Source: PVC group bacterium (GTDB lineage: Bacteria; Verrucomicrobiota; Kiritimatiellia; CAIKKV01; CAITUY01). From it: DNA of 64,000 bases. The position numbers and the translations under genes were made by a program. The stretch covers positions 7,906 through 71,905 of the forward strand of contig CAMDCX010000003.1 in NCBI GenBank assembly GCA_945890715.1. The letters run 5' to 3'. Numbering within the stretch: the first letter of the stretch is position 1; the number at the start of each line of letters is the position of its first letter. Shown here piece after piece: positions 6,326-20,213 of the stretch. The notes under the pieces are model-generated. The model worked only from the letters and a program-made list of their open reading frames with translations, had not been told where the DNA came from and did no database searches.

Positions 6326-7366
6326 TTACCGGGCCAGTTGTCCGCAGGCGGCCTGGATGTCGGCACCCAGCGAATGGCGACGCGTTGCCTTGAACCCGGC
6401 TTTCTTTAGTTCCGCCAGGAATTCCCCTACCCGCTGCTCCTGAGACCCGCGCAGAACCTGTCCCGCAACAACCGGCGCAGGGCCGGGTGCCGGATTATAA
6501 GGGATCAGGTTTACATGCACTTGCAATCCGGTCAGCCATTCCTTTAGCCCCGCACAATCAGCATCCGTATCCGTCAATCCCTCCAGCATCAGAATCTCGA
6601 TCATCACCGGTTGACCGTGAACTGTATTCCGCTCCAGGATTGCCTCACGAAGTTCCGGGAGCGGCCATTGGCGGCAAAACGGCATCAGTTCATCGCGGAT
6701 ACCCTGCCGCACGCTGTGCAGACTCACGGCAAGCCCGACCGAGGGAAAGCACGAGGACAGACGGCGTATGCCCTCCGGGATCCCAAGCGTGGAAACCAGA
6801 AGATGCCGGCCCGAAAGATGAAATCCGCCCGGGCTACTCAACTGCTCCAGCGCCGGGAACACGTTCTCCATGTTGTGAAAGGGCTCACCCATTCCCATAA
6901 AAACCACATTCCTGAGACGGCGTCCCTCCGCCTGAAGCATTTCCCCCGTCTGGACAATCTGATCCAGAATTTCCGCCGGGGTGAGGTTACGAACATCCTT
7001 CAGTCTTCCGGTGGCGCAGAACAGGCATCCCGCAACGCACCCGGTCTGTGATGACACGCATACTGAGGATCGACCGGTCTTGATGCGAAGCAGAACGCTT
7101 TCGATACGGCGGTCATCCCGGGTTTTGAACAACACCTTGCTGGCTCCATCCAAAACCGAATGAAGGGTTTCAATCCGCTCCAGTTCATGGAATCTCACCG
7201 CCGTGCTCACTTCGGATCGCATCCCTTCCGGCACCTCGCCGAGGGCGGCATCCTGACCTGAAAAAGAACGGAGAAAAACGGCTCGCACGCGCCGGATCAC
7301 CTGCGGGTCAAGCCGGAGCCGACGCCTCAGCGCTTCTAGTCCAACTTGGTCGACAAAGGAAATCAC
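6326..7366 (-). CDS. rlmN: RlmN-family radical SAM RNA methyltransferase (possibly a paralog)
   Basis: CVSSQTGCVAGCLFCATG (CxxxCxxC), VFMGMGEP, C-terminal IQAACGQL. Confidence 0.8.
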   Translation of the reverse strand: MISFVDQVGLEALRRRLRLDPQVIRRVRAVFLRSFSGQDAALGEVPEGMRSEVSTAVRFHELERIETLHSVLDGASKVLFKTRDDRRIESVLLRIKTGRSSVCVSSQTGCVAGCLFCATGRLKDVRNLTPAEILDQIVQTGEMLQAEGRRLRNVVFMGMGEPFHNMENVFPALEQLSSPGGFHLSGRHLLVSTLGIPEGIRRLSSCFPSVGLAVSLHSVRQGIRDELMPFCRQWPLPELREAILERNTVHGQPVMIEILMLEGLTDTDADCAGLKEWLTGLQVHVNLIPYNPAPGPAPVVAGQVLRGSQEQRVGEFLAELKKAGFKATRRHSLGADIQAACGQLAR

Positions 7367-9276
7367 TGTTCAAAATAGGTGTAACCGCGAATACCGGCTT
7401 TGTAGTCCTTCAGAAACGCATTCTTTTCCTTGGCGGTGATGAAGCCGTGCTTATAGGCCTTATCGGCACGCGACTTGATCGTCGCCACCATGCTTTCCGG
7501 GTCGTATTCCATGTACTTCAGAATTTCATCCACCCGATCCCCCGTGATCTGCTTGGCCGACTCAATACGGCCCTTGTCGTCAATCCTCACATGCAACACG
7601 TTTGTGTTCCCCAGAAGATTATGCATATCCCCGATGGTTTCCTGATAAGCACCCGTCAGAAAAATGCCCATATAGTATTCTCGTCCATCCCATTCATGGA
7701 GCGGCAGGACATGCTTGATATCGTGCAAATCAATGAACTTGTCGATCTTTCCATCCGAATCGCAGGTGATGTCCGCCAAAACCCCTTTGCGGGTCGGGCG
7801 CTGGCTGAGCCGGTGGATCGGCATAATCGGGAACAACTGATCAACGGCCCAGAAATCCGGAATGGACTGAAATACACTGAAGTTCCCGTAATACACGTCG
7901 GCAATTGCGGAATCCAGACCCTCGAGTTCGTCGGGAATATACTTGCGTCCCCGCGTCATTTCGGACATCTGGCAGACGATGTGCCAGAAAATCGTTTCCG
8001 CCAGAGCCCGTTCGCGGAGCGAGATCGTTCCGTGAAGGAACAGGGTGCGCAGTTCGTCGCGATAGAACACGGCATCATGATAAGCCTCCTGCATGTTCCG
8101 GGGGGAAAGGGAATGGCAAACTTCCATCAGGTTTTGAAGCATCTCATGGGCATTCACATCCAGTTTCTCTGGAATGTTGAGGGGCTCGAAACGACGCACA
8201 TCCAGAATGTTGAAAATCAAAACCGAGTGATGCGCCACCGTGGCGCGCCCGGACTCGGTAATGAGTGTGGGATGCGGCACCCCACACTCATCAAGGGTAT
8301 TCATGATCGTCTCGACCACCGTGGACGCATATTCGGCAGTAGAGTAATTGGTGCTACAGGCGAAATTGGTGTGGGAACCATCATAGTCCACGGCCAACCC
8401 TCCGCCCATATTCAGAATCCCCATTCCCGCCCCCTCACGAACGAGCTCAACATAGAAACGGCAGGCTTCCCGCAGCGCGGTACGCACCCTGCGGATGTCC
8501 GACACCTGGCTACCCAGATGGTAGTGCAGCATCTGCAGACAGTCCAACCTGTCGCGCTGACGCAACTGATCGACCATCTCTATGATCTGACTGGCATCGA
8601 GACCAAACTTGCTACGATCCCCACCCGACGAATCCCAATGCCCGCCGGCCCGACTCGACAACTTAGCGCGCACTCCCAGTACAGGCCGGATATCCAGACG
8701 CTCCGCTCGAGACAAAACAAGCTCCAGTTCACTGGGCATTTCTATAACCAGCACGGTGCGGGTCCCCATCTTCAAAGCCTGGAGAGCCATGTCGATGAAT
8801 TCCTCGTCCTTGTAGCCGTTGCAGATCACAAAGGCTTCCGGATCCTTCATGAGGGCGAGCGCGGCAATGAGCTCGGCCTTGCTGCCCGCCTCAATGCCGT
8901 GGTGATACTCACGCCCGTATTCCGTGATATCGCCCACCACGGCGTCCTGCTGATTCACCTTGATGGGGAAAACACCACGATACTGCCCCTGGTAGGCGGC
9001 ATCAAATATGGCCCACCGGAAACTCTCGTTGATCTCCTTGATGCGTGAGGCCAGGATGTTGGAAAAACGAATCAGAACGGGCATATTCAGCCCGCGCCCA
9101 TGACACTCGTCAATCAAGTGCATGAGACTGATTTCCGTGGGACTTTTCGGACCGTTCGGGCGAACCATGACTTCACCGCCGGGCGAGATGTCAAAATACC
9201 CCTGTCCCCAGTTCCGGATCCCGTACAATTCGGCGGAATTTTCCGCCGTCCACCGTGTCAATGCCTCATGCCTCAT
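7363..9276 (-). CDS. speA: biosynthetic arginine decarboxylase
   Basis: FPIKVNQ (PLP lysine), EAGSKAEL, HYHLGSQ, ESGRA, DITCDSDG, GAYQE. Confidence 0.95.
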   Translation of the reverse strand: MRHEALTRWTAENSAELYGIRNWGQGYFDISPGGEVMVRPNGPKSPTEISLMHLIDECHGRGLNMPVLIRFSNILASRIKEINESFRWAIFDAAYQGQYRGVFPIKVNQQDAVVGDITEYGREYHHGIEAGSKAELIAALALMKDPEAFVICNGYKDEEFIDMALQALKMGTRTVLVIEMPSELELVLSRAERLDIRPVLGVRAKLSSRAGGHWDSSGGDRSKFGLDASQIIEMVDQLRQRDRLDCLQMLHYHLGSQVSDIRRVRTALREACRFYVELVREGAGMGILNMGGGLAVDYDGSHTNFACSTNYSTAEYASTVVETIMNTLDECGVPHPTLITESGRATVAHHSVLIFNILDVRRFEPLNIPEKLDVNAHEMLQNLMEVCHSLSPRNMQEAYHDAVFYRDELRTLFLHGTISLRERALAETIFWHIVCQMSEMTRGRKYIPDELEGLDSAIADVYYGNFSVFQSIPDFWAVDQLFPIMPIHRLSQRPTRKGVLADITCDSDGKIDKFIDLHDIKHVLPLHEWDGREYYMGIFLTGAYQETIGDMHNLLGNTNVLHVRIDDKGRIESAKQITGDRVDEILKYMEYDPESMVATIKSRADKAYKHGFITAKEKNAFLKDYKAGIRGYTYFEQ

Positions 9277-9356: not shown

Positions 9357-10688
9357 TTACCGAATCTTCACCGGCTCAAACCGAGGCGCAAGGAGATGAT
9401 TAACGGCGAAAGCGACCAGATAGGCAAACGCACAAATGCTGAAGAGAATGGCATAACCAGCTGTCTCGCTGCCTGCCAACCTATAGTGATCCAGCATCTT
9501 GCCTGTCATAATGGGAAAAATCATACCGCCCAACGATCCCGCCATACCCCCCAGCCCGATAATCGAGGCAATCGCCCGCTTGGGGAACATATCGGACACC
9601 GAGGTGAATAGATTAGCAGACCAGGCTTGATGCGCAGCCCCCGCCAACCCGATCAACAGTACCGCAGGCCAGTCACCGACTTTTGTAACGAAAAAAATCG
9701 GCAGCACGCAAAGCGCAAACAGGAACATTCCAGTCTTACGGGCACGGGTCACACTCCATCCGGATTTTGCCAAATGACCGGTGATCCACCCGCCAAAAAT
9801 ACTGAGCACGGTAATGATCCCGTAAATGACAACGAGTAATGGCCAACTATGCTTGATGTCCAGATTTCGGGTCGTCTTGAAGTAGTCCGGGAGCCAAATG
9901 AGAAAAAACCACCAAACAGGGTCAGTCAGGAATTTCGCGACAATGAAAGACCAGACCTGACGGTAGCCCAAAAGAGCTTTCCAGGGAATCTTTTCCACCC
10001 GATCACTTTCCTCACGGTCACTAAGGATATGCTCAAGCTCCTTTGCATCCACCTCCTTATGCTTTTCGGGAGAATCATACATTTTGATCCAGAACCAGAG
10101 CCAAACAAAGCCAATTATACCGGCCACGATGAAGGGCATCCCCCACCCGAACTTGATCGCCAGAAGCGGAACTAAAGCGGGTGCCAACAAGGCCCCAACA
10201 TTAGTTCCTGAATTAAACAAACTGGTCGCAAAAGCACGTTCCCGCTTGGGGAACCACTGCGCCGTACTTTTGACGGCGGCGGGGAAGTTCCCGGCCTCGG
10301 CAAGCCCGAGCAGAACCCGACACAGTCCAAACGCCGCCACGGCCAATGCGGCAGCCCCGAATACCCGCCCTCCGATCTGAATACTGGCATGGCCGGGCAT
10401 AATTGCCACGATGGCATGAGCCATCGCCGCCAGGCTCCAGCCTACCATCGAGACGGCATACCCGACCTTGACCCCGAACCGATCCACAAACCAGCCAAAG
10501 AACAACAGACCCAGTCCATAAGCGGCCTGGAACAGGGAATTAACAAGCCCGAAATCGGCCTTGCTCCATCCAAATTGCACATCCAGAAACTCTTTGATCA
10601 GGGAAAGAATTTGCCGGTCAATGTAATTGACCGTCGTGGCGAAAAAAAGCAGCGTGCAAACAACCCACCGGTAATTGCCCTTGAACAT
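9357..10688 (-). CDS. exuT: MFS hexuronate transporter (ExuT-like, ACS family)
   Basis: NYIDRQ, EAGNFPAA, WFPKRERA, KFLTDPVWWF, AHQAWSAN; lies in the uronate operon. Confidence 0.85.
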   Translation of the reverse strand: MFKGNYRWVVCTLLFFATTVNYIDRQILSLIKEFLDVQFGWSKADFGLVNSLFQAAYGLGLLFFGWFVDRFGVKVGYAVSMVGWSLAAMAHAIVAIMPGHASIQIGGRVFGAAALAVAAFGLCRVLLGLAEAGNFPAAVKSTAQWFPKRERAFATSLFNSGTNVGALLAPALVPLLAIKFGWGMPFIVAGIIGFVWLWFWIKMYDSPEKHKEVDAKELEHILSDREESDRVEKIPWKALLGYRQVWSFIVAKFLTDPVWWFFLIWLPDYFKTTRNLDIKHSWPLLVVIYGIITVLSIFGGWITGHLAKSGWSVTRARKTGMFLFALCVLPIFFVTKVGDWPAVLLIGLAGAAHQAWSANLFTSVSDMFPKRAIASIIGLGGMAGSLGGMIFPIMTGKMLDHYRLAGSETAGYAILFSICAFAYLVAFAVNHLLAPRFEPVKIR

Positions 10689-10702
10689 AGAGTTCTCTCC
10701 TT

Positions 10703-11530
10703 CTAAACGCCTGAATAGGCTAGAAATCCGCCATCCACAGGAATCACAACACCCGTGACAAAGGAGGCTTCGTCGGAAACCAGGTAGGTCAGCGCACCGC
10801 ACAAATCTTTCGGATCCCCGAACCGGTGCATCGGCGTCTTGTTAATAACCTTCTGTCCGCGAGCCGTGAGGGTCGTGCCATCCGGCTCAAGCATTAGAAA
10901 CCGGTTCTGCTGGGTGATGAAAAAGCCCGGGGAAATGGCGTTGACCCGGATGTTGGCGGGAGCCAGGTGAACGGCTAACCAACGGGTGAAATTGTCGATT
11001 GCCGCCTTCGCTGCGGAATACGCCGCCACCTTCGTCAACGGTTGCGTTGCGGACATCGAGGATATATTGATGACGCTACCCCCCGTTTTCAGCATGGACT
11101 GACAAAAAACCTGAGCCGGCAACAGGCTGCCGATGAAATTGAGTTTGTTGACAAATTCGAACCCCGCCAAATCAAGACCGAAAAAGGAGTCTTCCAGCTT
11201 CGTTCCCTCTACAAACTGTTCGGCGGGACAGGTGCCCTTGGGATGATTTCCTCCGGCACCGTTAACCAGGATATCAATCCGACCCCACTTTTCCAGCACC
11301 GCCTCCCGAGCCATCTCGAGGGAGGCGCGCTCCAACACATTAACCCCAAAGGCCAGAGTTTCTCCGAGTCCTTTCGACGCAAGGGTCTTCTGAAAGGTTT
11401 TGGCATGATCCTCATTCAGATCAGCCAAGACGACCTTGGCTCCCTCCCTCAGCAGGGACTCCGTCATCACCGAACACAACACACCCGCCGCTCCCGTCAC
11501 TACCGCTACTTTTCCGTCAAGCCGCCCCAT
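10703..11530 (-). CDS. uxuB: SDR D-mannonate oxidoreductase (fructuronate reductase, UxuB/YjmF type)
   Basis: TGAAGVL, NGAGGNHPKGT, catalytic YSAAK, C-terminal DGGFLAYSGV; adjacent to uxaC. Confidence 0.82.
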   Translation of the reverse strand: MGRLDGKVAVVTGAAGVLCSVMTESLLREGAKVVLADLNEDHAKTFQKTLASKGLGETLAFGVNVLERASLEMAREAVLEKWGRIDILVNGAGGNHPKGTCPAEQFVEGTKLEDSFFGLDLAGFEFVNKLNFIGSLLPAQVFCQSMLKTGGSVINISSMSATQPLTKVAAYSAAKAAIDNFTRWLAVHLAPANIRVNAISPGFFITQQNRFLMLEPDGTTLTARGQKVINKTPMHRFGDPKDLCGALTYLVSDEASFVTGVVIPVDGGFLAYSGV

Positions 11531-11559
11531 AATGCCATCCTTCTGCGGGTTTACCGCTG

Positions 11560-12972
11560 CTAATTAAAAAAACCGAAATACCGGCGGGCATTGTGGTAAC
11601 AGATGTCCGCCACCATTTTTCCCGTCAAATCCATATCATTCGGAAGACGCCCGCGCGCCATATCGTGGCCAAGAATGTTGCACAGCAGGCGCCGGAAATA
11701 CTCATGCCGCCCATAGGACAGGAATGACCGGCTGTCCGTCAGCATGCCGACAAATTGGCTCAGCAATCCAAGTTGGGAAAGCGCCTCGATCTGGCGGGTC
11801 ATACCGTCAAGTTGATCCAGAAACCACCACCCGCTCCCGAACTGAATTTTTCCCGGCGTCACGCCATCCTGAAAACAACCAGCCAAGGTGGCAATGAGTT
11901 CATTATCACAGGGATTGATATTATAAAGAATCGTCTTTGGCAGTTTCCCAATCTGATCCAGACGGTCAAAATGACGAATCATCCCTTCACCCGTCGGCCA
12001 ATCACCGATGGAATCAAATCCGGTATCAGGCCCCAGTATCGCCGCCATGCGACTGTTGTTATTGCGCAAAACACCATAATGGATCTGCATCGTCCAGCCC
12101 CGGTCGGCATCCATCACCGCCAGCTCATGAAGCATGAACGCCTGAAACGCCAAGGCCTCCTCGGCTGAAACCGGCTTTCCGGAACGAGCTTTCTCAAAAA
12201 CAGTCCCGGCAACCGCCTGGGTGCATCCTTCGGCGGGGATAAAAGCAACCCCACGGTCAGACAGTCGACACCCACAGGCATGAAAGAAATCATGACGCTT
12301 TTGAAGCGCGGCGAGAAATCCATCCAGATTTCCAATATCCGCATTGACGGTTCCGGCAAGTCGGTCGGTCCAGGCATTGAAGGCCGCCGGATTGGCAACA
12401 GTCCAGCATTTATCCGGACGCCATGTGGGCCGCACCTGAACAGAAAATCGATCCGCAGCGATAGCCTGGTGGTGCTCCAAAGAATCCACGGGATCATCGG
12501 TGGTGCAGACCACCTCAACTTTGGCCTTTTTCATCAGGCTGCGGGCAGAAAACTCCGGCGCGGCAATGACCTTAAGCGATTCAGTCCAGATGGATTCGGC
12601 GGTAGCGGGCGACAACAGGCGGTCGGCAATCCCAAAAACATTTTTTAGCTCCATGTGCGACCAGTGATACAGGGGATTCCGGAGAGCCTGCGGCATGAGT
12701 TCGGCATACTTGTCGAACTTTTCCCGATCGGAAGCGTTGCCGGTGCAATACCGCTCCGCAATCCCGGCCGTGCGCATCTGCCGCCATTTGTAGTGGTCGC
12801 CATAGAGCCAGACCTGGGTAATGTTGTCCCATCGCTTGTTACTCGCGATTTCAGCCGGAGGCAAATGGCAGTGGTAATCAATAATCGGAAGATCCGCCGC
12901 ATACCCGTGGTACAATTCACGAGCCTGCTCCGTCTCCAGTAGGAAATTTTCACCAATGAATGTGTTTGCCAT
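11560..12972 (-). CDS. uxaC: glucuronate/uronate isomerase
   Basis: IIDYHCHL, GDHYKWR, CTTDDP, GSGWWF, GMLTDSRSFLSY, RHEYFRR. Confidence 0.97.
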   Translation of the reverse strand: MANTFIGENFLLETEQARELYHGYAADLPIIDYHCHLPPAEIASNKRWDNITQVWLYGDHYKWRQMRTAGIAERYCTGNASDREKFDKYAELMPQALRNPLYHWSHMELKNVFGIADRLLSPATAESIWTESLKVIAAPEFSARSLMKKAKVEVVCTTDDPVDSLEHHQAIAADRFSVQVRPTWRPDKCWTVANPAAFNAWTDRLAGTVNADIGNLDGFLAALQKRHDFFHACGCRLSDRGVAFIPAEGCTQAVAGTVFEKARSGKPVSAEEALAFQAFMLHELAVMDADRGWTMQIHYGVLRNNNSRMAAILGPDTGFDSIGDWPTGEGMIRHFDRLDQIGKLPKTILYNINPCDNELIATLAGCFQDGVTPGKIQFGSGWWFLDQLDGMTRQIEALSQLGLLSQFVGMLTDSRSFLSYGRHEYFRRLLCNILGHDMARGRLPNDMDLTGKMVADICYHNARRYFGFFN

Positions 12973-12978
12973 AAGATC

Positions 12979-14274
12979 CTACTCCCGATCCGAGAAATTC
13001 CCGCGGAATGACCAAAGGCCCAGCGCAGGGTTGCTAATGAAAAAGACCCGCTCCCCTTCAACCTCATTCATGCCGTCCGAAAGTGTTTGCGGGTTGTATT
13101 GGGCCATCAGGGTCTTGAGATCGCCATACCGATATCCCACCGATTCAATTTCGGTCCGAGAGAGGTACCCGGGGCAATAGGTAATCCCAAACCGGTCTTC
13201 TGAAGAGCCGTGAATAAGATGAGCCGCCGCAGACAGATTGTTTCGCAACTCCAAATTTTCCGCTACACAGCGAAGTGTATAAGGAGTGCCCTTGTAGCCA
13301 TAGTGACGAACCAGACGGTCGATTTCGCGATCTTCACCGAACTCTTTCAACCCAGGGGCAAGAACAACCAATTCCCCGGCATCGGCAATGGCCATACGAG
13401 TCCTGTAAATAGCCTTATTACCCAGCCATGTGGAACGAAATTCCTCAGGATCCAGCCAGACCACCACTTTTGTCAAAGGCTCATCAAGCAATGTGATGTT
13501 GACCTTCCGACAAAGTTGGCAGGCCTCCTGAAAAAGCGAGTCTCCCTTTCCAGCATAAAACCCGCGCATTTTCATCCGACCAGCCGCATGGTCACGCTCC
13601 ATCACCGTGAGAATATACTGGATCGGAAGCCCACTCAGGAAGGTTGAGACACCATAATTGAACAGACGACGCACCGGCGTATCGGCATGACCAAGCGCCT
13701 TCTCCATATTGCAAACGGCACCTAGAAAATGCGATTTGTTGATGGTTTCGGCTCCCCCTACCCCGACCAACACATTCTTCGTGTAGTTGGCCATCCCGAC
13801 CACTTCATGAGGAACCACCTGCCCAATGGAAAGAATAAGGTCATACCCTGAAAACAGGCGTTTATTGACCTCAATATTGACATCGTAGTCCACTCGGCCA
13901 TCGGACCATTCCCGAAGTTTGTCTCCGGGAATAACACCTCGTGAAACCACGTCTTTCCGCCAATCATGAGGCAAGAAGCACTCCAGAGGAATGCTATCAC
14001 CAAACATCAACCGGAGCTCCGCCTCCCCCATTGGGGCATGCGTGCCCAGCGCCGGCATAATATCCGTTTTTGCACCCCAGCCTGAAAGCAACCGGTAGGC
14101 AATTGCGGTAATCGGACCGGCCATGGAGTTGAGCCGAGTGTGATCCGGGGGAAGGAGAAGCACCCGGCGAAGCGTTCTCCCGCCGAATGTCTCCAGCGCC
14201 TGAAGCACCAGTTGCTCCAATTCAGGAGACTGGATATCCAATTTCACACCGGCCTGTTTGATCACAGCGGTCAT
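12979..14274 (-). CDS. LarA/DUF2088 nickel-pincer 2-hydroxyacid epimerase (mannonate/gluconate 2-epimerase-like)
   Basis: PPDHTR, ALGTH, VVPHE...ANYTK, KSH and LGNK correspond to the LarA catalytic and NPN-binding positions. Confidence 0.8.
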   Translation of the reverse strand: MTAVIKQAGVKLDIQSPELEQLVLQALETFGGRTLRRVLLLPPDHTRLNSMAGPITAIAYRLLSGWGAKTDIMPALGTHAPMGEAELRLMFGDSIPLECFLPHDWRKDVVSRGVIPGDKLREWSDGRVDYDVNIEVNKRLFSGYDLILSIGQVVPHEVVGMANYTKNVLVGVGGAETINKSHFLGAVCNMEKALGHADTPVRRLFNYGVSTFLSGLPIQYILTVMERDHAAGRMKMRGFYAGKGDSLFQEACQLCRKVNITLLDEPLTKVVVWLDPEEFRSTWLGNKAIYRTRMAIADAGELVVLAPGLKEFGEDREIDRLVRHYGYKGTPYTLRCVAENLELRNNLSAAAHLIHGSSEDRFGITYCPGYLSRTEIESVGYRYGDLKTLMAQYNPQTLSDGMNEVEGERVFFISNPALGLWSFRGNFSDRE

Positions 14275-14279
14275 CCTAT

Positions 14280-15740
14280 TTACACAACGTAGGTCGACGA
14301 TGTGGTTGAGCCTCCCAGCTTGCACCAGTCCGTGTGGAAGAACTGACCGCGCGGCTTATCAATCCGTTCGTAGGTATGGGCGCCAAAATAATCTCGCTGT
14401 GCCTGAAGCAGGTTGGCGGGAAGTGTTTCGGCGCGATACCCGTCATAATAGGCCAACGCGGACATGAAAGCGGGAATCGGGATTCCGTGCTTCACAGCGC
14501 GGGCCACTGCCCGGCGCCAGGCCTTCTGGCTCTGACGAATCGCCTTCTTAAAATATTTATCCAGAAGCAAATTGGCCAGTTTCGGATTCCGATCAAAAGC
14601 CGCCTTGATATCGCCCAGGAAACGCGCCCGAATGATGCACCCGCCACGCCACATCAGAGCAATGGATCCATAATCGAGCGTCCAGTTCTGCTCTGCGGCC
14701 GCCGCACGCATCAATTGAAAACCCTGAGCATAGGAACAGATCTTTGAGGCATAGAGAGCTTGACGAACATCCTCGATAAAGGCTTCCTTATCTCCTTTAA
14801 ATTTGGCTTTCGGCCCTGACAACACCTTGGCGGCCGAAACACGTTCATCCTTCATCGCGGACATGCAACGGGCAAACACAGCCTCCGAAACCGTCGGTGC
14901 CGCGACTCCGTAATCCAACGCCGCAATGCTGGTCCACTTACCCGTCCCCTTCTGGCCGGCTGTGTCCAGAATGATATCCACCACATGCTTCCCGGTCTCT
15001 GGATCCTTCTCCGCGAGGATATCACGCGTAATCTGAATAAGGTAGGAGTCCAAGTCGCCTTCATTCCACTGCGTAAAGACCTTGTGCAACTCCTCATTCG
15101 ACAGCCCGAGCACCCCTTTGAGCAGGGAGTACGCCTCACAGATCATCTGCATGTCGCCGTACTCGATTCCATTATGAACCATTTTGACAAAGTGGCCGGC
15201 TCCATCAGACCCCACCCAGTCGCAGCAGGGAACATCGCCCTCCACCTTGGCAGAAACAGCCTGAAAAATCGGCTTCACATGGGGCCACGCAGCGGGTGAT
15301 CCACCGGGCATGATGGATGGTCCCTTAAGCGCGCCCTCTTCGCCTCCGGAAACACCGGTTCCTATAAACAACAATCCCTTCGACTCGACATAGTTTGTCC
15401 GGCGGATCGTATCCGGATAATGGCTGTTACCGCCATCAATGATGATGTCACCAGCCTCCAGGTGCGGCAGGAGTTGCTCGATACACTCATCCACCGCCTT
15501 GCCAGCCTTGACCAGCATCATAACCTTGCGAGGACGCTTCAGCGCCGCGCAAAGCTCGGTAACTGTTTTGCATCCCACAATCTTTTTTCCCTTCCCACGC
15601 CCTTGAACAAAGGCTTCAACCTTATCCACCGTGCGGTTGTAGACAGCAACGGTAAACCCATGGCTCTCCATGTTGAGGACGAGATTTTCCCCCATGACGG
15701 CGAGTCCGATCATGGCCATATCCGCAGTTTGATTACTCAT
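14280..15740 (-). CDS. gnd: 6-phosphogluconate dehydrogenase, decarboxylating (NADP)
   Basis: [50 protein letters not shown]. Confidence 0.97.
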
Positions 15741-15774
15741 GCTTTTATTCCTTTGTCTTGTTCGTTTATTGAAA

Positions 15775-16662
15775 TTAGTTTTTCCAGTGAGGCTGGGACG
15801 GTAACGCCGCTTCAAATTCGTCGACTAGTCGCTTCTGGTATGCTCCCGCGAAAGACCCGTTGAAGAATCGCTTCAACCCCTCTCCCGCAAGCTCAGCCCA
15901 GGACGACTCTTCCCGCCCGGGAAGGATCGGAAAGAAAAGGGCCTGGTTCCCATCGGCGGCCTTACGGTCTCCGGGCGCATCACCGACCATCAACACCTTA
16001 CCTTCGGCGTAGTGCCCCTTGGTCGCGTGGGTAAGATGCTCAGTCTTGGTGCCATGCTCCTGACCGGCAATCACACTGACGGTTCCACGAATTCCCGCTT
16101 CCTCCCATTCCCGCTCCAAGGCTTCCAGTGGGGTCTGGGACACGACAATCATGTCAGCTTTTCCCGTGCCGGCTGATAACACCTCGCGCACACCAGGAAA
16201 GGGCGGAATTCCAAACACCATTTCTTCAATACGGCGATTAACCTCCAAGCTCCATTCCAGCAACCGTTTCAGCTCGGGAGTAGGATCATCGGCGACTTTC
16301 TTCTTGAGCGCGGGATTCCCAAGCTTAGTCTCCACTTTGAGCCAGGCGGAAAGCTCCGAGGTATCCGCCAGTTTCACTCCCCGCTGACTGAACTGGCTAC
16401 GCAATCGCATCAACGCAAAGGTTTTTTCAACAGCCAGAAAACGGTTACAACCCCGATCCTTGCTGTAGAGATTTACAAATTCCCAGGTCTCCCGGGCATA
16501 TTTGCTCGCAGATTGAAGGCCGAAATGCTTGATGAAAGCCGGGCAGAAACATTCCTTCTGCTTAATCTCCATCGAATCGAACACGCACCCATCACTGTCA
16601 AATCCGATAAAGAACCCATGCTTTCTGGGCAACTCCACTAATTGCTTTACATACTGATCCAT
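15775..16662 (-). CDS. HAD-superfamily hydrolase/phosphatase
   Basis: Motif [10 protein letters not shown], motif II VSQT, motif III K (GTK), motif [10 protein letters not shown]. Confidence 0.85.
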
Positions 16663-16666
16663 TACA

Positions 16667-17962
16667 TCACTTTCCCTTCCGATTTCCCTCTGGAACATAG
16701 GCCGCCAGCTTTCTGGCGGCAAACACCGGCTTGAACTGCGCGAATCGTTGTCGCCCGCCAATAGTCGGAACCGACGCCCAGTCCTCGCCGATCAGGGGCT
16801 GGGCATAGCGAATAAACTCATCCGTCACATCGGTTTTGCTCGGCGAAATCCAGTTTTTCGGAAACGTACGTTCGGAATTGGCAACCAGCTCCAACGGAAC
16901 CTTGTCATAGCGAACCTGATAAATACGCCCTGGATCCCTCAAAATCGTGGACATAAAGCCGCCCTCACCCCCCACCGCCAACTCAACCGCCTTCTGTCCG
17001 CACCGGTACGCTTCATCCAGATCAACCACCGAGGCATAGACCGCCGTGGAACGCTGATCCGTCCCAAAGACCTGGCCGCGCGCTGCGCCCGCCGCCTTAA
17101 TCCCGTGGTCATTCAGATAGTTGACGAGCATCTGCTGAGCCGTTGTTTTGCTCGCGCCAAAGGTGGCATGCCCGAATTTGTCTTTCAAGGCACCCAGATC
17201 CCCCACATCGCAGCCCTCGCTGAGCACCACCACCGCACGGCCGCGCGCGGCTACCATCTCATTCGTCTTTTCTGCCATCTCACCCAAGGACAATCCGGCT
17301 TCAGCCAAAAAAATCAGCAGAGGCATCTCGCGCTTGGGATCCGCCAGACGGGCGGCTGCGGGGATATAGCCGATCTTGCGACCCATTGCCTGAAGCACCA
17401 GCACGGGATCCGCCGGATAGGAACCCCGGTTCTCCTCTTCGGCATTTTGAACGATCATGGTCCAGTAACGTGCCACAGAGCCGTATCCCGGAGTATGATC
17501 AATCAATTTAAAATCGCTGTCGCCAACATCGTTGTCAATCGTTTTGGGAACGCCGATCCCGACAACATCCAACCCACGTTCACAGGCCAGTTTCGCGATC
17601 TTGTTGGCGGTGTCCATGGAGTCATTCCCGCCATTGTATAAAAAGTATCCAATATTATGAGCCCGCAAAACATCAATAACACGTTCGAAGTCCGCCTTCT
17701 GGCTGGATTTGATCTTATAACGGCAGGTTCCAATCGCACCCGCGGCAGGAGTCCACCGAAGGAGAGCGACCTCCTCTTCACTCTGAATGGATAAATCAAG
17801 CAATTCCTCGGTGAGAACCCCCTCAATTCCATGCCATCCCGCATAAATACGATCAACCTGATCCGGATAACTTCGGGCCGCTTCGATGACGCCTCGTAAT
17901 GAGCTATTGATCACCGGCGAAGGCCCACCGGACTGAGCGATAAGAAGGTTTTTTCTGGTCAT
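16667..17962 (-). CDS. PPi-dependent phosphofructokinase (PfkA family) homolog
   Basis: QSGGPSPVIN; GGNDS (Asp of PPi type); PKTIDND (Lys of PPi type); MGR. Start at MTRKNLL with a GGGGAG RBS. Confidence 0.85.
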   Translation of the reverse strand: MTRKNLLIAQSGGPSPVINSSLRGVIEAARSYPDQVDRIYAGWHGIEGVLTEELLDLSIQSEEEVALLRWTPAAGAIGTCRYKIKSSQKADFERVIDVLRAHNIGYFLYNGGNDSMDTANKIAKLACERGLDVVGIGVPKTIDNDVGDSDFKLIDHTPGYGSVARYWTMIVQNAEEENRGSYPADPVLVLQAMGRKIGYIPAAARLADPKREMPLLIFLAEAGLSLGEMAEKTNEMVAARGRAVVVLSEGCDVGDLGALKDKFGHATFGASKTTAQQMLVNYLNDHGIKAAGAARGQVFGTDQRSTAVYASVVDLDEAYRCGQKAVELAVGGEGGFMSTILRDPGRIYQVRYDKVPLELVANSERTFPKNWISPSKTDVTDEFIRYAQPLIGEDWASVPTIGGRQRFAQFKPVFAARKLAAYVPEGNRKGK

Positions 17963-18037
17963 CACTGAACTCCCCTTAATTCGGTTGATATAGGCTTCAA
18001 AATAGGCTTTCGCGCCGCCTTCTACAATCTGAAATAA

Positions 18038-18077
18038 TCGCAAATTGGTTGACATTTGCGAACTATATTTCCATGTT
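18038..18077 (+). promoter_or_regulatory. promoter of the XylR-like gene with an overlapping palindromic operator
   Basis: TTGACA(18049)-N17-CATGTT; inverted repeat TCGCAAAT-N8-ATTTGCGA at 18038-18061. Confidence 0.55.
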
Positions 18078-18082
18078 AAGTC

Positions 18083-19207
18083 ATGGCCGGAAAAATGAAA
18101 AATGTTCTGGTGGCGCTGGAATTCTACCGGGGGCCTCTGTTTGAGGGAATTGCGGAATATGCCCGATCGCACCACTGGCACCTGTCTTTGGAAATGCTAC
18201 ATAATCCTGGAAACATCCCTTGGGGGTGGGATGGCGATGGAATCCTCACCATGCTCATCCGTGACGAAACCGCCCTGTTGAAATTTCTACAGAAAACTAA
18301 AAAGCCCACTGTCAATCTGGAGGGCCGACGACTGACCACCTCCTATCCCCGGGTTCTCAGCGACACGAAAAAGGCAGCAGAAATGGCCTTTCATTATTTC
18401 AGGGGAAAAGGATTTGAGCACTTCGCCTTCTATGGCATTGAACATTCCGTGCGCGGTCGCGACTTTGCCCTTGTTACACAGGCCAACGGCTATCCTTGCA
18501 CGTTCCTGCTCGAGGGCGCGGTTTCATGGAGGACGCAGCTGGCCGTCACCCGTCGTTGGCTCAAGGATCAACCCAAGCCCCTCGCTGTTCTTTGCTGGGC
18601 TGATTATGCCGGGGCACGCTTTGTCGATATGGCGCACAGTCTGGGATGGCGTATTCCCGATGATGTCGCCGTTCTGGGAATGGATAATGAGAACCGCATT
18701 TGTGATTGTGCAGCAGTTCGCCTATCCAGTATTCAGACCGACATTCAACGCGTTGGCATTCTGGGAGCCGGGCTTCTTGATCGCATTATGGCGGGCGAAG
18801 CCATTGAGCCCAAAAGCCAGCTCATCCCTCCCCGCGAAATCGTGGAACGCCACAGTACCGATACCTTTGCGGCAGACTCCCCGTTGGTAACTCAGGCCGT
18901 CCGGTTCATGAAAGAGCATCATCCGTCAGGAATTAATGTGGCATCCGTGGTCGCCGCCTGCGCCGTGTCACGGCGCGGTCTCGAAAAAGCGTTTCTCAAC
19001 AGTTTAGGAAAAACCCCGTACCAGACGCTACTCCAGATCCGCATGTATAAAGCGCGCCTTCTGTTAAGGGAGGGACAAGAAAAAATTGCAACAGTCGCCC
19101 GTCTGGTTGGAATTCCGGACCCCAAGCACTTTTCCTCGCTCTTTCGCCATGAATACGGAGACGCGCCCCGCAATTACCGTCAGCGCTGGGAGCAAGCGAA
19201 TCTCTGA
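18083..19207 (+). CDS. XylR-like transcriptional regulator (LacI-type sensor domain plus AraC HTH)
   Basis: WDGDGIL, IPDDVAVLGMDN, LSSI, VERHST; C-terminal AraC helices; divergent from the uronate operon. Confidence 0.88.
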   Translation: MAGKMKNVLVALEFYRGPLFEGIAEYARSHHWHLSLEMLHNPGNIPWGWDGDGILTMLIRDETALLKFLQKTKKPTVNLEGRRLTTSYPRVLSDTKKAAEMAFHYFRGKGFEHFAFYGIEHSVRGRDFALVTQANGYPCTFLLEGAVSWRTQLAVTRRWLKDQPKPLAVLCWADYAGARFVDMAHSLGWRIPDDVAVLGMDNENRICDCAAVRLSSIQTDIQRVGILGAGLLDRIMAGEAIEPKSQLIPPREIVERHSTDTFAADSPLVTQAVRFMKEHHPSGINVASVVAACAVSRRGLEKAFLNSLGKTPYQTLLQIRMYKARLLLREGQEKIATVARLVGIPDPKHFSSLFRHEYGDAPRNYRQRWEQANL

Positions 19208-19250
19208 GTTCAGCCTTCTCCATTGGCGTCCACTTTTATATCATCAGGCC

Positions 19251-20213
19251 ATGTCGCATTCACAAATCAACGGAACGGCGTTTCTTTATGACCCCATTTT
19301 ACAAAAACACAAAACGGGCTGCACGCATCCCGAAAAACGGCAGCGCCTCACCGCCATCATGAACGGACTAAAGCAAGCTGGGCTTTGGGAATTGCTCCAG
19401 CATCCCGCCATCCGGCCAGCAACGGCGACAGACCTCACTACGATTCACGACCCACAGTATGTTGATCACATCCGGCAGGCGTGTGAAGCCGGAGAACTCT
19501 TCGCGCCCGATGATGTCACCATCGGATCCCCTGGCACCTACGACGCCGCCCTGATGTCCGCTGGAGCAGTTTTAACCGCGATCGACACCGTAATGGCCGG
19601 TCAAGCCTCCAACGCCTTCTGTGCCGTACGTCCTCCAGGCCATCACGCAGAACGGAACCGAGCCATGGGATTCTGCTTTTTTAATAATGTTGCCATCGGC
19701 GCAAAATACCTTCAGCAGCATCATGGCATCCGCCGCGTCGCCATTATTGATTGGGATGTGCATCACGGTAACGGCACGCAACAGGCCTTTTACGACGACC
19801 CTTCTGTATTTTATTTCAGCATTCATCAGCACCCTCTTTACCCGAACAGCGGGTGGTCTCATGAAACCGGAACCGGCAGGGGAAAAGGCTTCACCTTGAA
19901 CTGCCCAGTCCCTGCAGGCTCCACCAACACAGACTACAATCGGGTATTCCAAGACTATCTCAGACCCGCGCTGGTGCGGTTCAGGCCGGAATTCATACTA
20001 ATCTCGGCGGGTTTTGATGCGCACCATGCCGATCCTCTCGCAGGCATAGCCCTCAACGAAAAGGGCTTTAAGGAACTGACCCACACCGTAATGACGTTAG
20101 CAACGGAATACTCCGAAAACCGCCTCATTTCCGTGCTGGAGGGGGGCTACGATCTCACGGCACTCGCGGCGTGTGTCACGTCTCACATCGAAGCGCTTCT
20201 GGACGCTTCATGA
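19251..20213 (+). CDS. histone deacetylase / acetylpolyamine amidohydrolase family protein
   Basis: HPE, RPPGHHA, MGFCFFNN, DWDVHHGNGTQ, SAGFDAH, LEGGY. Confidence 0.93.
   Translation: MSHSQINGTAFLYDPILQKHKTGCTHPEKRQRLTAIMNGLKQAGLWELLQHPAIRPATATDLTTIHDPQYVDHIRQACEAGELFAPDDVTIGSPGTYDAALMSAGAVLTAIDTVMAGQASNAFCAVRPPGHHAERNRAMGFCFFNNVAIGAKYLQQHHGIRRVAIIDWDVHHGNGTQQAFYDDPSVFYFSIHQHPLYPNSGWSHETGTGRGKGFTLNCPVPAGSTNTDYNRVFQDYLRPALVRFRPEFILISAGFDAHHADPLAGIALNEKGFKELTHTVMTLATEYSENRLISVLEGGYDLTALAACVTSHIEALLDAS

Follow-up and report, generated by a model that had tools for sequence, protein, structure and literature searches.

A hexuronate operon of a freshwater PVC bacterium that probably leads through a nickel-dependent epimerase to 6-phosphogluconate dehydrogenase, with a phosphofructokinase paralog as candidate kinase

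A hexuronate operon of seven genes lies in a stretch of 64,000 nucleotides, called the window below (positions 7,906 to 71,905 of contig CAMDCX010000003.1, here contig C3, of assembly GCA_945890715.1), from a freshwater bacterium of the PVC group without the usual mannonate dehydratase, UxuA. The operon probably routes glucuronate via a nickel-dependent epimerase to the 6-phosphogluconate dehydrogenase Gnd. The route would end in the pentose phosphate pathway and not in 2-keto-3-deoxygluconate (KDG), and its kinase would be a neofunctionalised paralog of the pyrophosphate (PPi)-dependent phosphofructokinases (PFKs), designated PFK-L, that has replaced the PfkB protein c3 of most relatives. On the evidence of sequences and gene neighbourhoods, the balance tips slightly towards PFK-L as the pathway kinase; that it phosphorylates a sugar acid, and that PPi is its phosphoryl donor, are predictions of the same kind. 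The source assembly (2.1 Mb in 87 contigs, 89.5% complete) is labelled G000, and other genomes, contigs and loci are given G, C and L numbers where they need to be told apart.

The seven genes all lie on the minus strand, with spacers of 4, 34, 5, 6, 29 and 14 nucleotides. Open reading frames and family profiles confirm the tightly packed, co-directional arrangement and the divergent XylR-like regulator that had been described in the first-pass annotation. PFK-L (16667-17962, 431 amino acids) is a PPi-type member of the PFK family (PF00365, 122 bits; NF010675, 367 bits against a cut-off of 273) and is followed by an enzyme of the haloacid dehalogenase (HAD) superfamily with 295 amino acids, a DxD motif and an enlarged C1 cap (15775-16662; assigned by motifs I-IV and by fold match). 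Gnd (14280-15740) is of the decarboxylating NADP type (TIGR00873, 766 bits against a cut-off of 426.7), and the LarA homolog, LarAH18 (12979-14274), is a putative hexonate 2-epimerase dependent on NPN, the nickel-pincer nucleotide, as cofactor (NF052594, 596.2 bits against 500). Next come the glucuronate/galacturonate isomerase UxaC (11560-12972; PF02614, 641 bits; NF002794, 610 bits against 387) and a short-chain dehydrogenase/reductase (SDR; 10703-11530) of the D-mannonate oxidoreductase, or fructuronate reductase, type (NF006132, 374 bits against 281). The last gene (9357-10688) encodes a transporter of the major facilitator superfamily (MFS), anion:cation symporter type (MFS_1, 195 bits), which is likely to be a hexuronate importer; its score with TIGR00893 is 232 bits, under the cut-off of 395. 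The starts of the PFK (17962), HAD (16662), Gnd (15740), LarA (14274) and MFS (10688) genes were set from a reading of the DNA, that of the MFS gene being an ATG preceded by GGAGAG.

Taken together, these proteins would form a complete catabolic route. The MFS transporter would import glucuronate, UxaC would isomerise it to fructuronate, and the SDR would reduce fructuronate to D-mannonate, the C2 configuration of which would be inverted by LarAH18 with its nickel-pincer cofactor. A kinase, predicted to be PFK-L here and in the nearest relatives, would phosphorylate C6, and Gnd would decarboxylate the resulting 6-phosphogluconate to ribulose 5-phosphate. The order of the kinase and epimerase steps in this scheme is provisional, and one alternative order is weighed below.

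The assignment of LarAH18 to the LarA superfamily is further borne out by conserved NPN-binding and catalytic residues: H156-E157-V158, K166 and H182 do not vary among 22 sequences, their spacing of 10 and 16 residues equals that of the reference LarA (H174, K184, H200), and they align with the His/Lys/His of PDB 4nar. LarAH18 also carries the 'EV' loop signature that section 8 of Desguin 2020 gives for groups 18-20. Group 18 itself is uncharacterised, and that paper puts forward a hexonate substrate for it as a hypothesis only.

A scan of one genome per species yielded at least 585 LarAH18 loci, and the best 80, which come from Lentisphaeria, Victivallales, Kiritimatiellia, Verrucomicrobiia, Planctomycetota, Bacteroidales and others, were kept for neighbourhood counts. 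According to tblastn searches with the proteins of the window, these 80 loci contain Gnd in 42 cases, the SDR in 30, c3 in 20, UxaC in 10, the HAD enzyme in eight, PFK-L in four, Eda in three and UxuA in two, and the counts are lower bounds because many loci end at contig edges. In a set of 61 relatives that includes the source genome, Gnd was over its cut-off in 55. Where LarAH18 itself is missing, a different LarA homolog (about 28% identical; 176 bits with NF052594, under the cut-off) is the immediate neighbour of SDR-Gnd at 10 of 12 loci examined, which suggests that a second LarA group has been recruited into the same slot; it lies directly upstream of SDR-Gnd at loci L136-L145 (G007, G009, G015, G031, G003, G008, G047, G056, G036 and G033). 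A module of a LarA homolog, the SDR and Gnd is thus widespread and indeed near-universal in the class, its kinase is usually a PfkB protein, and the PFK-L operon is a minority form of it. By these counts, Gnd in this class goes together with an epimerase of the LarA type and an SDR of the fructuronate reductase type, not with glucose-6-phosphate dehydrogenase. In the survey of neighbourhoods, which had been proposed in the first-pass annotation, the cluster is kept in many genomes and in several gene orders, and the form with PFK-L is the rarer one. Two variants of the module should also be mentioned. In Bacteroidales (L074, L076, L079) the order is UxaC-SDR-LarAH18-GFO/MocA oxidoreductase-Gnd-MFS-LacI-UxaE, with no kinase inside the cluster, and locus L117 (contig C8 of G059) has SDR-UxuA-c3-Gnd-LarAH18, so that the dehydratase and epimerase branches stand together.

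The enzymes of the classical routes are largely missing. It was correctly stated in the first-pass annotation that the window contains no uxuA, eda, PfkB, FGGY or GntK gene. UxuA was found neither in the assembly nor in any of the 44 genomes of the order or the 16 congeners (enolase-type ManD and Edd were not searched for), and it was detected in five of the 61 relatives. GntK (TIGR01313) was detected in none of the 61. The assembly contains no FGGY gluconokinase, the top score with the gntK_FGGY profile being 104 bits against 648, and its two FGGY kinases (contigs C22 and C23) have xylulokinase and rhamnulokinase as best matches and lie in clusters unrelated to the operon. They were rejected as hexonate kinases: one belongs to a xylose-type cluster and the other adjoins a DeoR regulator and an E1-dehydrogenase-like gene. 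No DUF1537 acid-sugar kinase was found in the assembly either. Its PfkB genes, on contigs C6, C31 and C56, comprise one 1-phosphofructokinase-like, one RfaE-like and one housekeeping gene; the C56 gene was considered as a hidden hexonate kinase or displacement partner and was discarded, being present in 57 of the 61 genomes regardless of kinase type. Thus, the succession UxaC, SDR, LarA-type 2-epimerase and Gnd without UxuA, as it had been proposed from the window, fits the wider data, with UxuA in 0 of 44 and GntK in 0 of 61 genomes and with Gnd beside LarAH18 in more than half of the best 80 loci.

The more general claim of a bypass of the Entner-Doudoroff pathway has to be narrowed. The search of the rest of the genome for alternatives bore it out for UxuA, GntK and FGGY gluconokinase and went against it for Eda, which is encoded on contig C38 within a DUF2264-eda-kduI-kduD-GH88 cluster, the route for unsaturated uronates. 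With eda in the genome, only the UxuA branch is bypassed. The C38 cluster (C38:5117-10883, locus L081) reads DUF2264-eda-kduI-kduD-GH88/DUF4861, has a divergent IclR regulator and contains no KdgK; in the congener G002 a PfkB paralog comes after GH88 in the corresponding cluster. Neither c3 nor this G002-type, KdgK-like PfkB paralog was found at E <= 1e-30 in G000, G004, G005, G006 or G011, and therefore the phosphorylation of KDG in that sub-lineage is also without a candidate, unless PFK-L performs it.

Gnd is a single-copy gene in the assembly, as judged by tblastn, and no G6PD_C domain was found in the source assembly, the one (incomplete) assembly checked for it, so that Gnd may have no classical oxidative-branch partner in the source organism. 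The genes larB, larC and larE gave no match over the cut-off in the source assembly. In 51 of the 61 relatives and 15 of the 16 congeners larB and larC are over the cut-off and lie side by side (larE was not searched in the relatives), and the lack in the source assembly is likely to be an assembly gap. The search for these genes that had been suggested in the first-pass annotation thus came out empty in the source genome and, for larB and larC, positive among its congeners. A cofactor-independent LarA, which their lack in the source assembly could have indicated, was discarded in view of the adjacent larB and larC of the congeners.

With regard to the kinase, PFK-L is a PFK-family protein by sequence and is distinct from the housekeeping enzyme. 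It matches PDB 3k2q and 3hno at E values of about 1e-74. The housekeeping PPi-PFK of the same genome, on contig C1, scores 477 bits with NF010675 and is 35-37% identical to PFK-L; it is encoded in tandem with a very divergent PFK-family gene (C1:97304-99766, locus L086), which clusters with E. coli PfkA and has a long branch. A maximum-likelihood tree places the 19 PFK-L rows in a clade of their own (support 100/100), and long branches lie between it and the 15 housekeeping proteins from these genomes.

Residues were compared, in E. coli numbering, between 120 close PFK-L homologs and 15 housekeeping sequences. Both groups have kept R72, D104, K124, T125, D127, D129, the MGR motif, E222, R243 and R252; T125, D127, D129, M169-G170-R171 and E222 are retained in all 22 PFK-L rows of the alignment, save E222 in one, and D104 and K124 are present in 120/120 homologs. 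The Asp104/Lys124 pair is, as we assume, the signature of a preference for PPi over ATP. The 6-phosphate of fructose 6-phosphate is presumably bound in E. coli PfkA by R162, R243, H249 and R252, and the corresponding residue set of the PPi-PFKs is incomplete in PFK-L, which retains R243 and R252 but has other residues at positions 162 and 249. At or near position 162, all 120 homologs have Pro, whereas 14 of the 15 housekeeping paralogs have Lys; at position 249, Thr (120/120) replaces the Tyr of the housekeeping paralogs (15/15); and at position 250, Asp (120/120) takes the place of their Leu. In addition, an insert of five amino acids follows TIDND in 120/120 PFK-L homologs and is not found in the housekeeping PFK. 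It should be noted that the alignment near position 162 shifts by up to two columns between two alignments and that the insert carries a conserved Lys or Arg, which makes the argument from the pocket suggestive and not decisive.

The distribution of PFK-L links it to the epimerase. In a sample of 251 genomes of the class, cross-tabulated by hand, PFK-L was present in 46 and LarAH18, at E <= 1e-100, in 111; LarAH18 accompanied PFK-L in 43 of these 46 genomes, versus 68 of the 205 genomes without PFK-L. At least eight of the 43 genomes have both genes on a single contig with no more than 5 kb between them. The complete order PFK-HAD-Gnd-LarA-UxaC-SDR-MFS is found in the source genome and in G004, and other arrangements are SDR-PFK-HAD-Gnd (G028, G034, G038), SDR-Gnd-PFK (G026) and LarA-PFK (G045).

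The PfkB protein c3 shows the complementary pattern. Orthologs of PFK-L occur in 17 and orthologs of c3 in 31 of the 61 relatives. [quoted passage not shown] Congeners with c3, such as G002, have an operon of the same build, with the divergent regulator and Gnd-LarA-UxaC-SDR-MFS and with 77-89% identical proteins, from which PFK and HAD are missing, and c3 is encoded elsewhere. In other genomes c3 adjoins UxaC (G003, G008) or HAD (G010, G012). This pattern is expected if PFK-L displaced c3 as the pathway kinase. The two share a place in the module, beside UxaC, Gnd, LarA or HAD, but c3 is KdgK-like, of an unrelated fold and presumably ATP-dependent, and in the genus it occurs only where there is no close PFK-L ortholog. 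A role of c3 as KdgK was discarded, as a different PfkB paralog adjoins Eda or KduI-KduD-Eda-GH88. The view taken in the first-pass annotation, that the PFK homolog supplies the phosphorylation, thereby gains support from comparative genomics: a clade of its own, a changed pocket, co-occurrence with LarAH18 and complementarity with a PfkB protein would all suit it.

Several known systems resemble the proposed route. A galacturonate route of Thermotoga maritima is reportedly the subject of work by Rodionova in 2012. The same species has an operon gnd-uxaE-uxaD-gntE-gntK (Rodionov 2013), and mannonate/gluconate 2-epimerase activity has been measured for GntE, which is listed as GntE2 in Desguin 2020. 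There as here, Gnd and a hexonate 2-epimerase of the LarA family are encoded in one hexuronate operon, and mannonate carbon would pass through 6-phosphogluconate into the pentose phosphate pathway. The epimerase of the present operon, however, belongs to the uncharacterised group 18 and not to group 20, with an identity in the 28% range to PDB 4nar; the place of gntK is taken by a PFK-family paralog and a HAD enzyme; and T. maritima has kept kdgA-kdgK-uxuB-uxuA, whereas the lineage studied here has no UxuA branch. In extracts of Lactobacillus suebicus, a mannonate kinase acts first and a 6-phosphomannonate 2-epimerase second (Valk 2020, PMC6978723). In that isomerase-phosphoketolase hybrid pathway, a kinase and a 2-epimerase likewise turn mannonate into 6-phosphogluconate, and the conversion of uronate to ribulose 5-phosphate is redox-neutral. 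The activities were seen in extracts; GntK-like genes were held responsible for the kinase, and no gene was assigned to the epimerase. The present system is described from its genes; the LarA homolog is, by analogy, an obvious candidate for the L. suebicus 6-phosphomannonate 2-epimerase.

PFK-L itself is closest to the PRK14072 PPi-PFKs (PDB 3k2q, 3hno), with which it shares the fold, the catalytic motifs PKTIDND and MGR, E222 and the Asp104/Lys124 pair. This subfamily includes a Methylococcus-type enzyme that reportedly prefers sedoheptulose 7-phosphate. PFK-L differs in lacking the Lys near 162 and a Tyr/His at 249, in the Asp at 250 and in the five-residue insert, and it travels with LarAH18 and Gnd, not with glycolytic genes. 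A literature search, from whose scope most subscription journals and supplements fell out (including Table S1 of Desguin 2020 with the gene contexts of group 18), yielded no paper that assigns these genes. The pathway logic is a variant of a known proposal, and the new element would be the neofunctionalised PPi-PFK paralog with its HAD partner in the kinase slot.

The HAD enzyme has no Pfam match at the default threshold (HAD_2, 19.1 bits against a gathering score of 23.8), but many of its homologs do carry PF13419. The label that had been given to it stands despite this low score: the residues of HAD motifs I-IV (DxD, S/T, K, DxxxD), D22, D24, S175, T177, K206, D228 and D232, are invariant in 37/37 homologs, and an AlphaFold2 model (pLDDT 94.5) has a Rossmannoid core into which a cap is inserted behind motif I. 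Foldseek retrieved 141 PDB matches for the model at E <= 0.001 with TM values of 0.39-0.53, the top matches being members of subfamily I (YniC, beta-PGM and phosphoglycolate phosphatases; E about 2e-5). Sequence searches against the PDB returned nothing usable, and in the protein atlas generic HAD clusters only were found. The model thus indicates a C1-capped HAD enzyme, a phosphatase or mutase. A metal site of four Cys residues was considered and rejected, since conservation in the family at large extends to C26 and C38 only.

At least one HAD homolog is present in 52 of the 61 relatives. The homologs fall into one group linked to PFK-L, c3 or LarA and a second, some members of which are linked to Gnd or LarA. 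The linkage to either type of kinase, to Gnd or to LarA in several lineages suggests that HAD belongs to the module irrespective of the phosphoryl donor. A second HAD paralog of the source genome, 46% identical, is encoded at C53:5279-6181 (locus L085), next to a CobA-type adenosyltransferase and to a fusion protein of the PRK/uridine-kinase family, and within the genus this type of paralog was seen only in genomes with PFK-L. The catabolic role of a phosphatase or mutase is not obvious. 4-Phosphoerythronate inhibits Gnd, and it may be guessed that HAD removes this inhibitor or one like it, or else mis-phosphorylated acids.

A number of observations weigh against PFK-L as a sugar-acid kinase of this pathway. 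We know of no PFK-family enzyme that phosphorylates a non-phosphorylated sugar acid, and with R243 and R252 kept and a Lys or Arg in the insert, a phosphate-bearing substrate of PFK-L is possible. Between Lentisphaeria, Victivallales and Kiritimatiellales, PFK-L keeps 75-80% identity, versus about 63% for LarAH18, which is what an enzyme of central metabolism might show. It occurs without LarAH18 in three of its 46 genomes, stands amid unrelated genes in four relatives, and does not occur in the other 76 of the best 80 LarAH18 loci. PFK-L and c3 are found together in three, and neither in 16, of the 61 genomes. Moreover, the genomes are related metagenome-assembled genomes, so that the counts are not independent and the absences in incomplete assemblies are soft. 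The empty search for larB, larC and larE in the source assembly and the unexplained function of HAD belong to the same side of the balance.

The main competing explanation makes PFK-L an ordinary kinase of fructose 6-phosphate or sedoheptulose 7-phosphate that is regulated together with the operon. It would draw carbon from ribulose 5-phosphate down the non-oxidative branch of the pentose phosphate pathway and on into glycolysis, and the hexonate kinase would be another, unrecognised protein. Such a role would explain why PFK-L scores over the cut-off of the PPi-PFK subfamily, why it has kept the catalytic residues together with R243 and R252, and why it is highly conserved and often encoded away from uronate genes; in addition, PPi-PFKs of the same subfamily have been proposed to phosphorylate sedoheptulose 7-phosphate in a planctomycete devoid of transaldolase. 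However, the source genome does have a transaldolase, and it already has the housekeeping PPi-PFK and a third PFK-family gene. An ordinary sugar-phosphate kinase would also leave the seven PFK-L genomes of the genus without any candidate for the hexonate kinase, and it accounts neither for the complementarity with c3 and the link to LarAH18 in 43/46 genomes nor for the missing Lys and Tyr, which in the housekeeping paralog line the site of the 6-phosphate. We therefore regard this explanation as unlikely, albeit as one to be taken seriously. A far weaker case can be made for classical UxuA, KdgK or GntK enzymes that carry the flux and whose genes lie in the 10% of the genome missing from the assembly, PFK, HAD and Gnd being mere neighbours. 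The assembly, at 89.5% completeness and in 87 contigs, is demonstrably missing larB and larC, which are present in 15/16 congeners, but UxuA is likewise found in 0/16 congeners and 0/44 genomes of the order and GntK in 0/61 relatives, and the gene cluster has been retained in many genomes and in several gene orders, which makes this explanation highly improbable.

If PFK-L is taken as the pathway kinase, its substrate and the order of steps can still be read in two ways. PFK-L might phosphorylate D-fructuronate at C1 or mannonate at C6, with LarAH18 then acting on 6-phospho-D-mannonate and being the orphan 6-phosphomannonate 2-epimerase of L. suebicus. Fructuronate is a closer chemical analogue of fructose 6-phosphate than mannonate or gluconate, sharing its furanose skeleton with COO- in place of CH2OPO3, and a pocket that has lost Lys and Tyr, gained Asp and kept two Arg would suit a monoanion. 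The adjacency of LarAH18 and Gnd, which are 5 nucleotides apart here and adjacent in many loci, would agree with this order, and so would the high Km values of the characterised GntE enzymes for free mannonate (17 and 120 mM) and the existence in L. suebicus of activities without assigned genes. Against it stands the SDR, with 87-94% identity from the PFK-L form of the operon to the c3 form. In both forms the reductase probably takes free fructuronate as its substrate. This speaks against a phosphorylation that precedes reduction, favours a common step from free fructuronate to mannonate with the kinase acting on a hexonate, and makes mannonate or gluconate the more parsimonious substrate of PFK-L. 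We regard the altered order as unlikely. A more far-reaching combination, in which PFK-L would be the first PFK-family member to act, with PPi, on a non-phosphorylated sugar acid (mannonate, fructuronate or perhaps KDG), LarAH18 would be the orphan 6-phosphomannonate 2-epimerase, and HAD would be a dedicated phosphatase protecting Gnd or clearing mis-phosphorylated acids, is a tentative proposal, which as a whole we regard as unlikely. Together the three would make up a PPi-economising, redox-neutral route of uronate fermentation that is widespread in Lentisphaeria and Kiritimatiellia.

The regulator gene (18083-19207, plus strand) is divergent from the operon and encodes a sugar-binding domain combined with an AraC-type helix-turn-helix (Peripla_BP_3, 78 bits; HTH_18, 61 bits) in an XylR-like architecture, and its ortholog holds the same divergent position at loci L001 and L120. 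The 120-bp intergenic region between the regulator and the PFK gene contains a perfect 8-N8-8 palindrome (18038-18061), a candidate operator that occurs once in the assembly when up to two mismatches are allowed. It was rejected as a conserved operator, because no match with up to two mismatches was present in the loci of relatives that were examined. Scans for sigma-70 promoters and terminators gave results at or under shuffle expectation. The operon is flanked by an arginine decarboxylase of the biosynthetic type (7363-9276, minus strand) and a histone-deacetylase-family protein (19086-20213, plus strand), and the latter neighbour is retained at loci L001 and L002.

Uronic acids rank among the major building blocks of polysaccharides from plants, algae and animals, and the PVC bacteria that have the module specialise in degrading such polymers in lakes, sediments and guts. 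Provided that the proposed route is true, a whole bacterial class catabolises saturated uronates without mannonate dehydratase, via 6-phosphogluconate. The reading of PFK-L would also correct its annotation, as the databases name its homologs 'diphosphate--fructose-6-phosphate 1-phosphotransferase'; the substrate range of the PFK family would be extended to sugar acids, and PPi as the donor would save ATP in fermenters.

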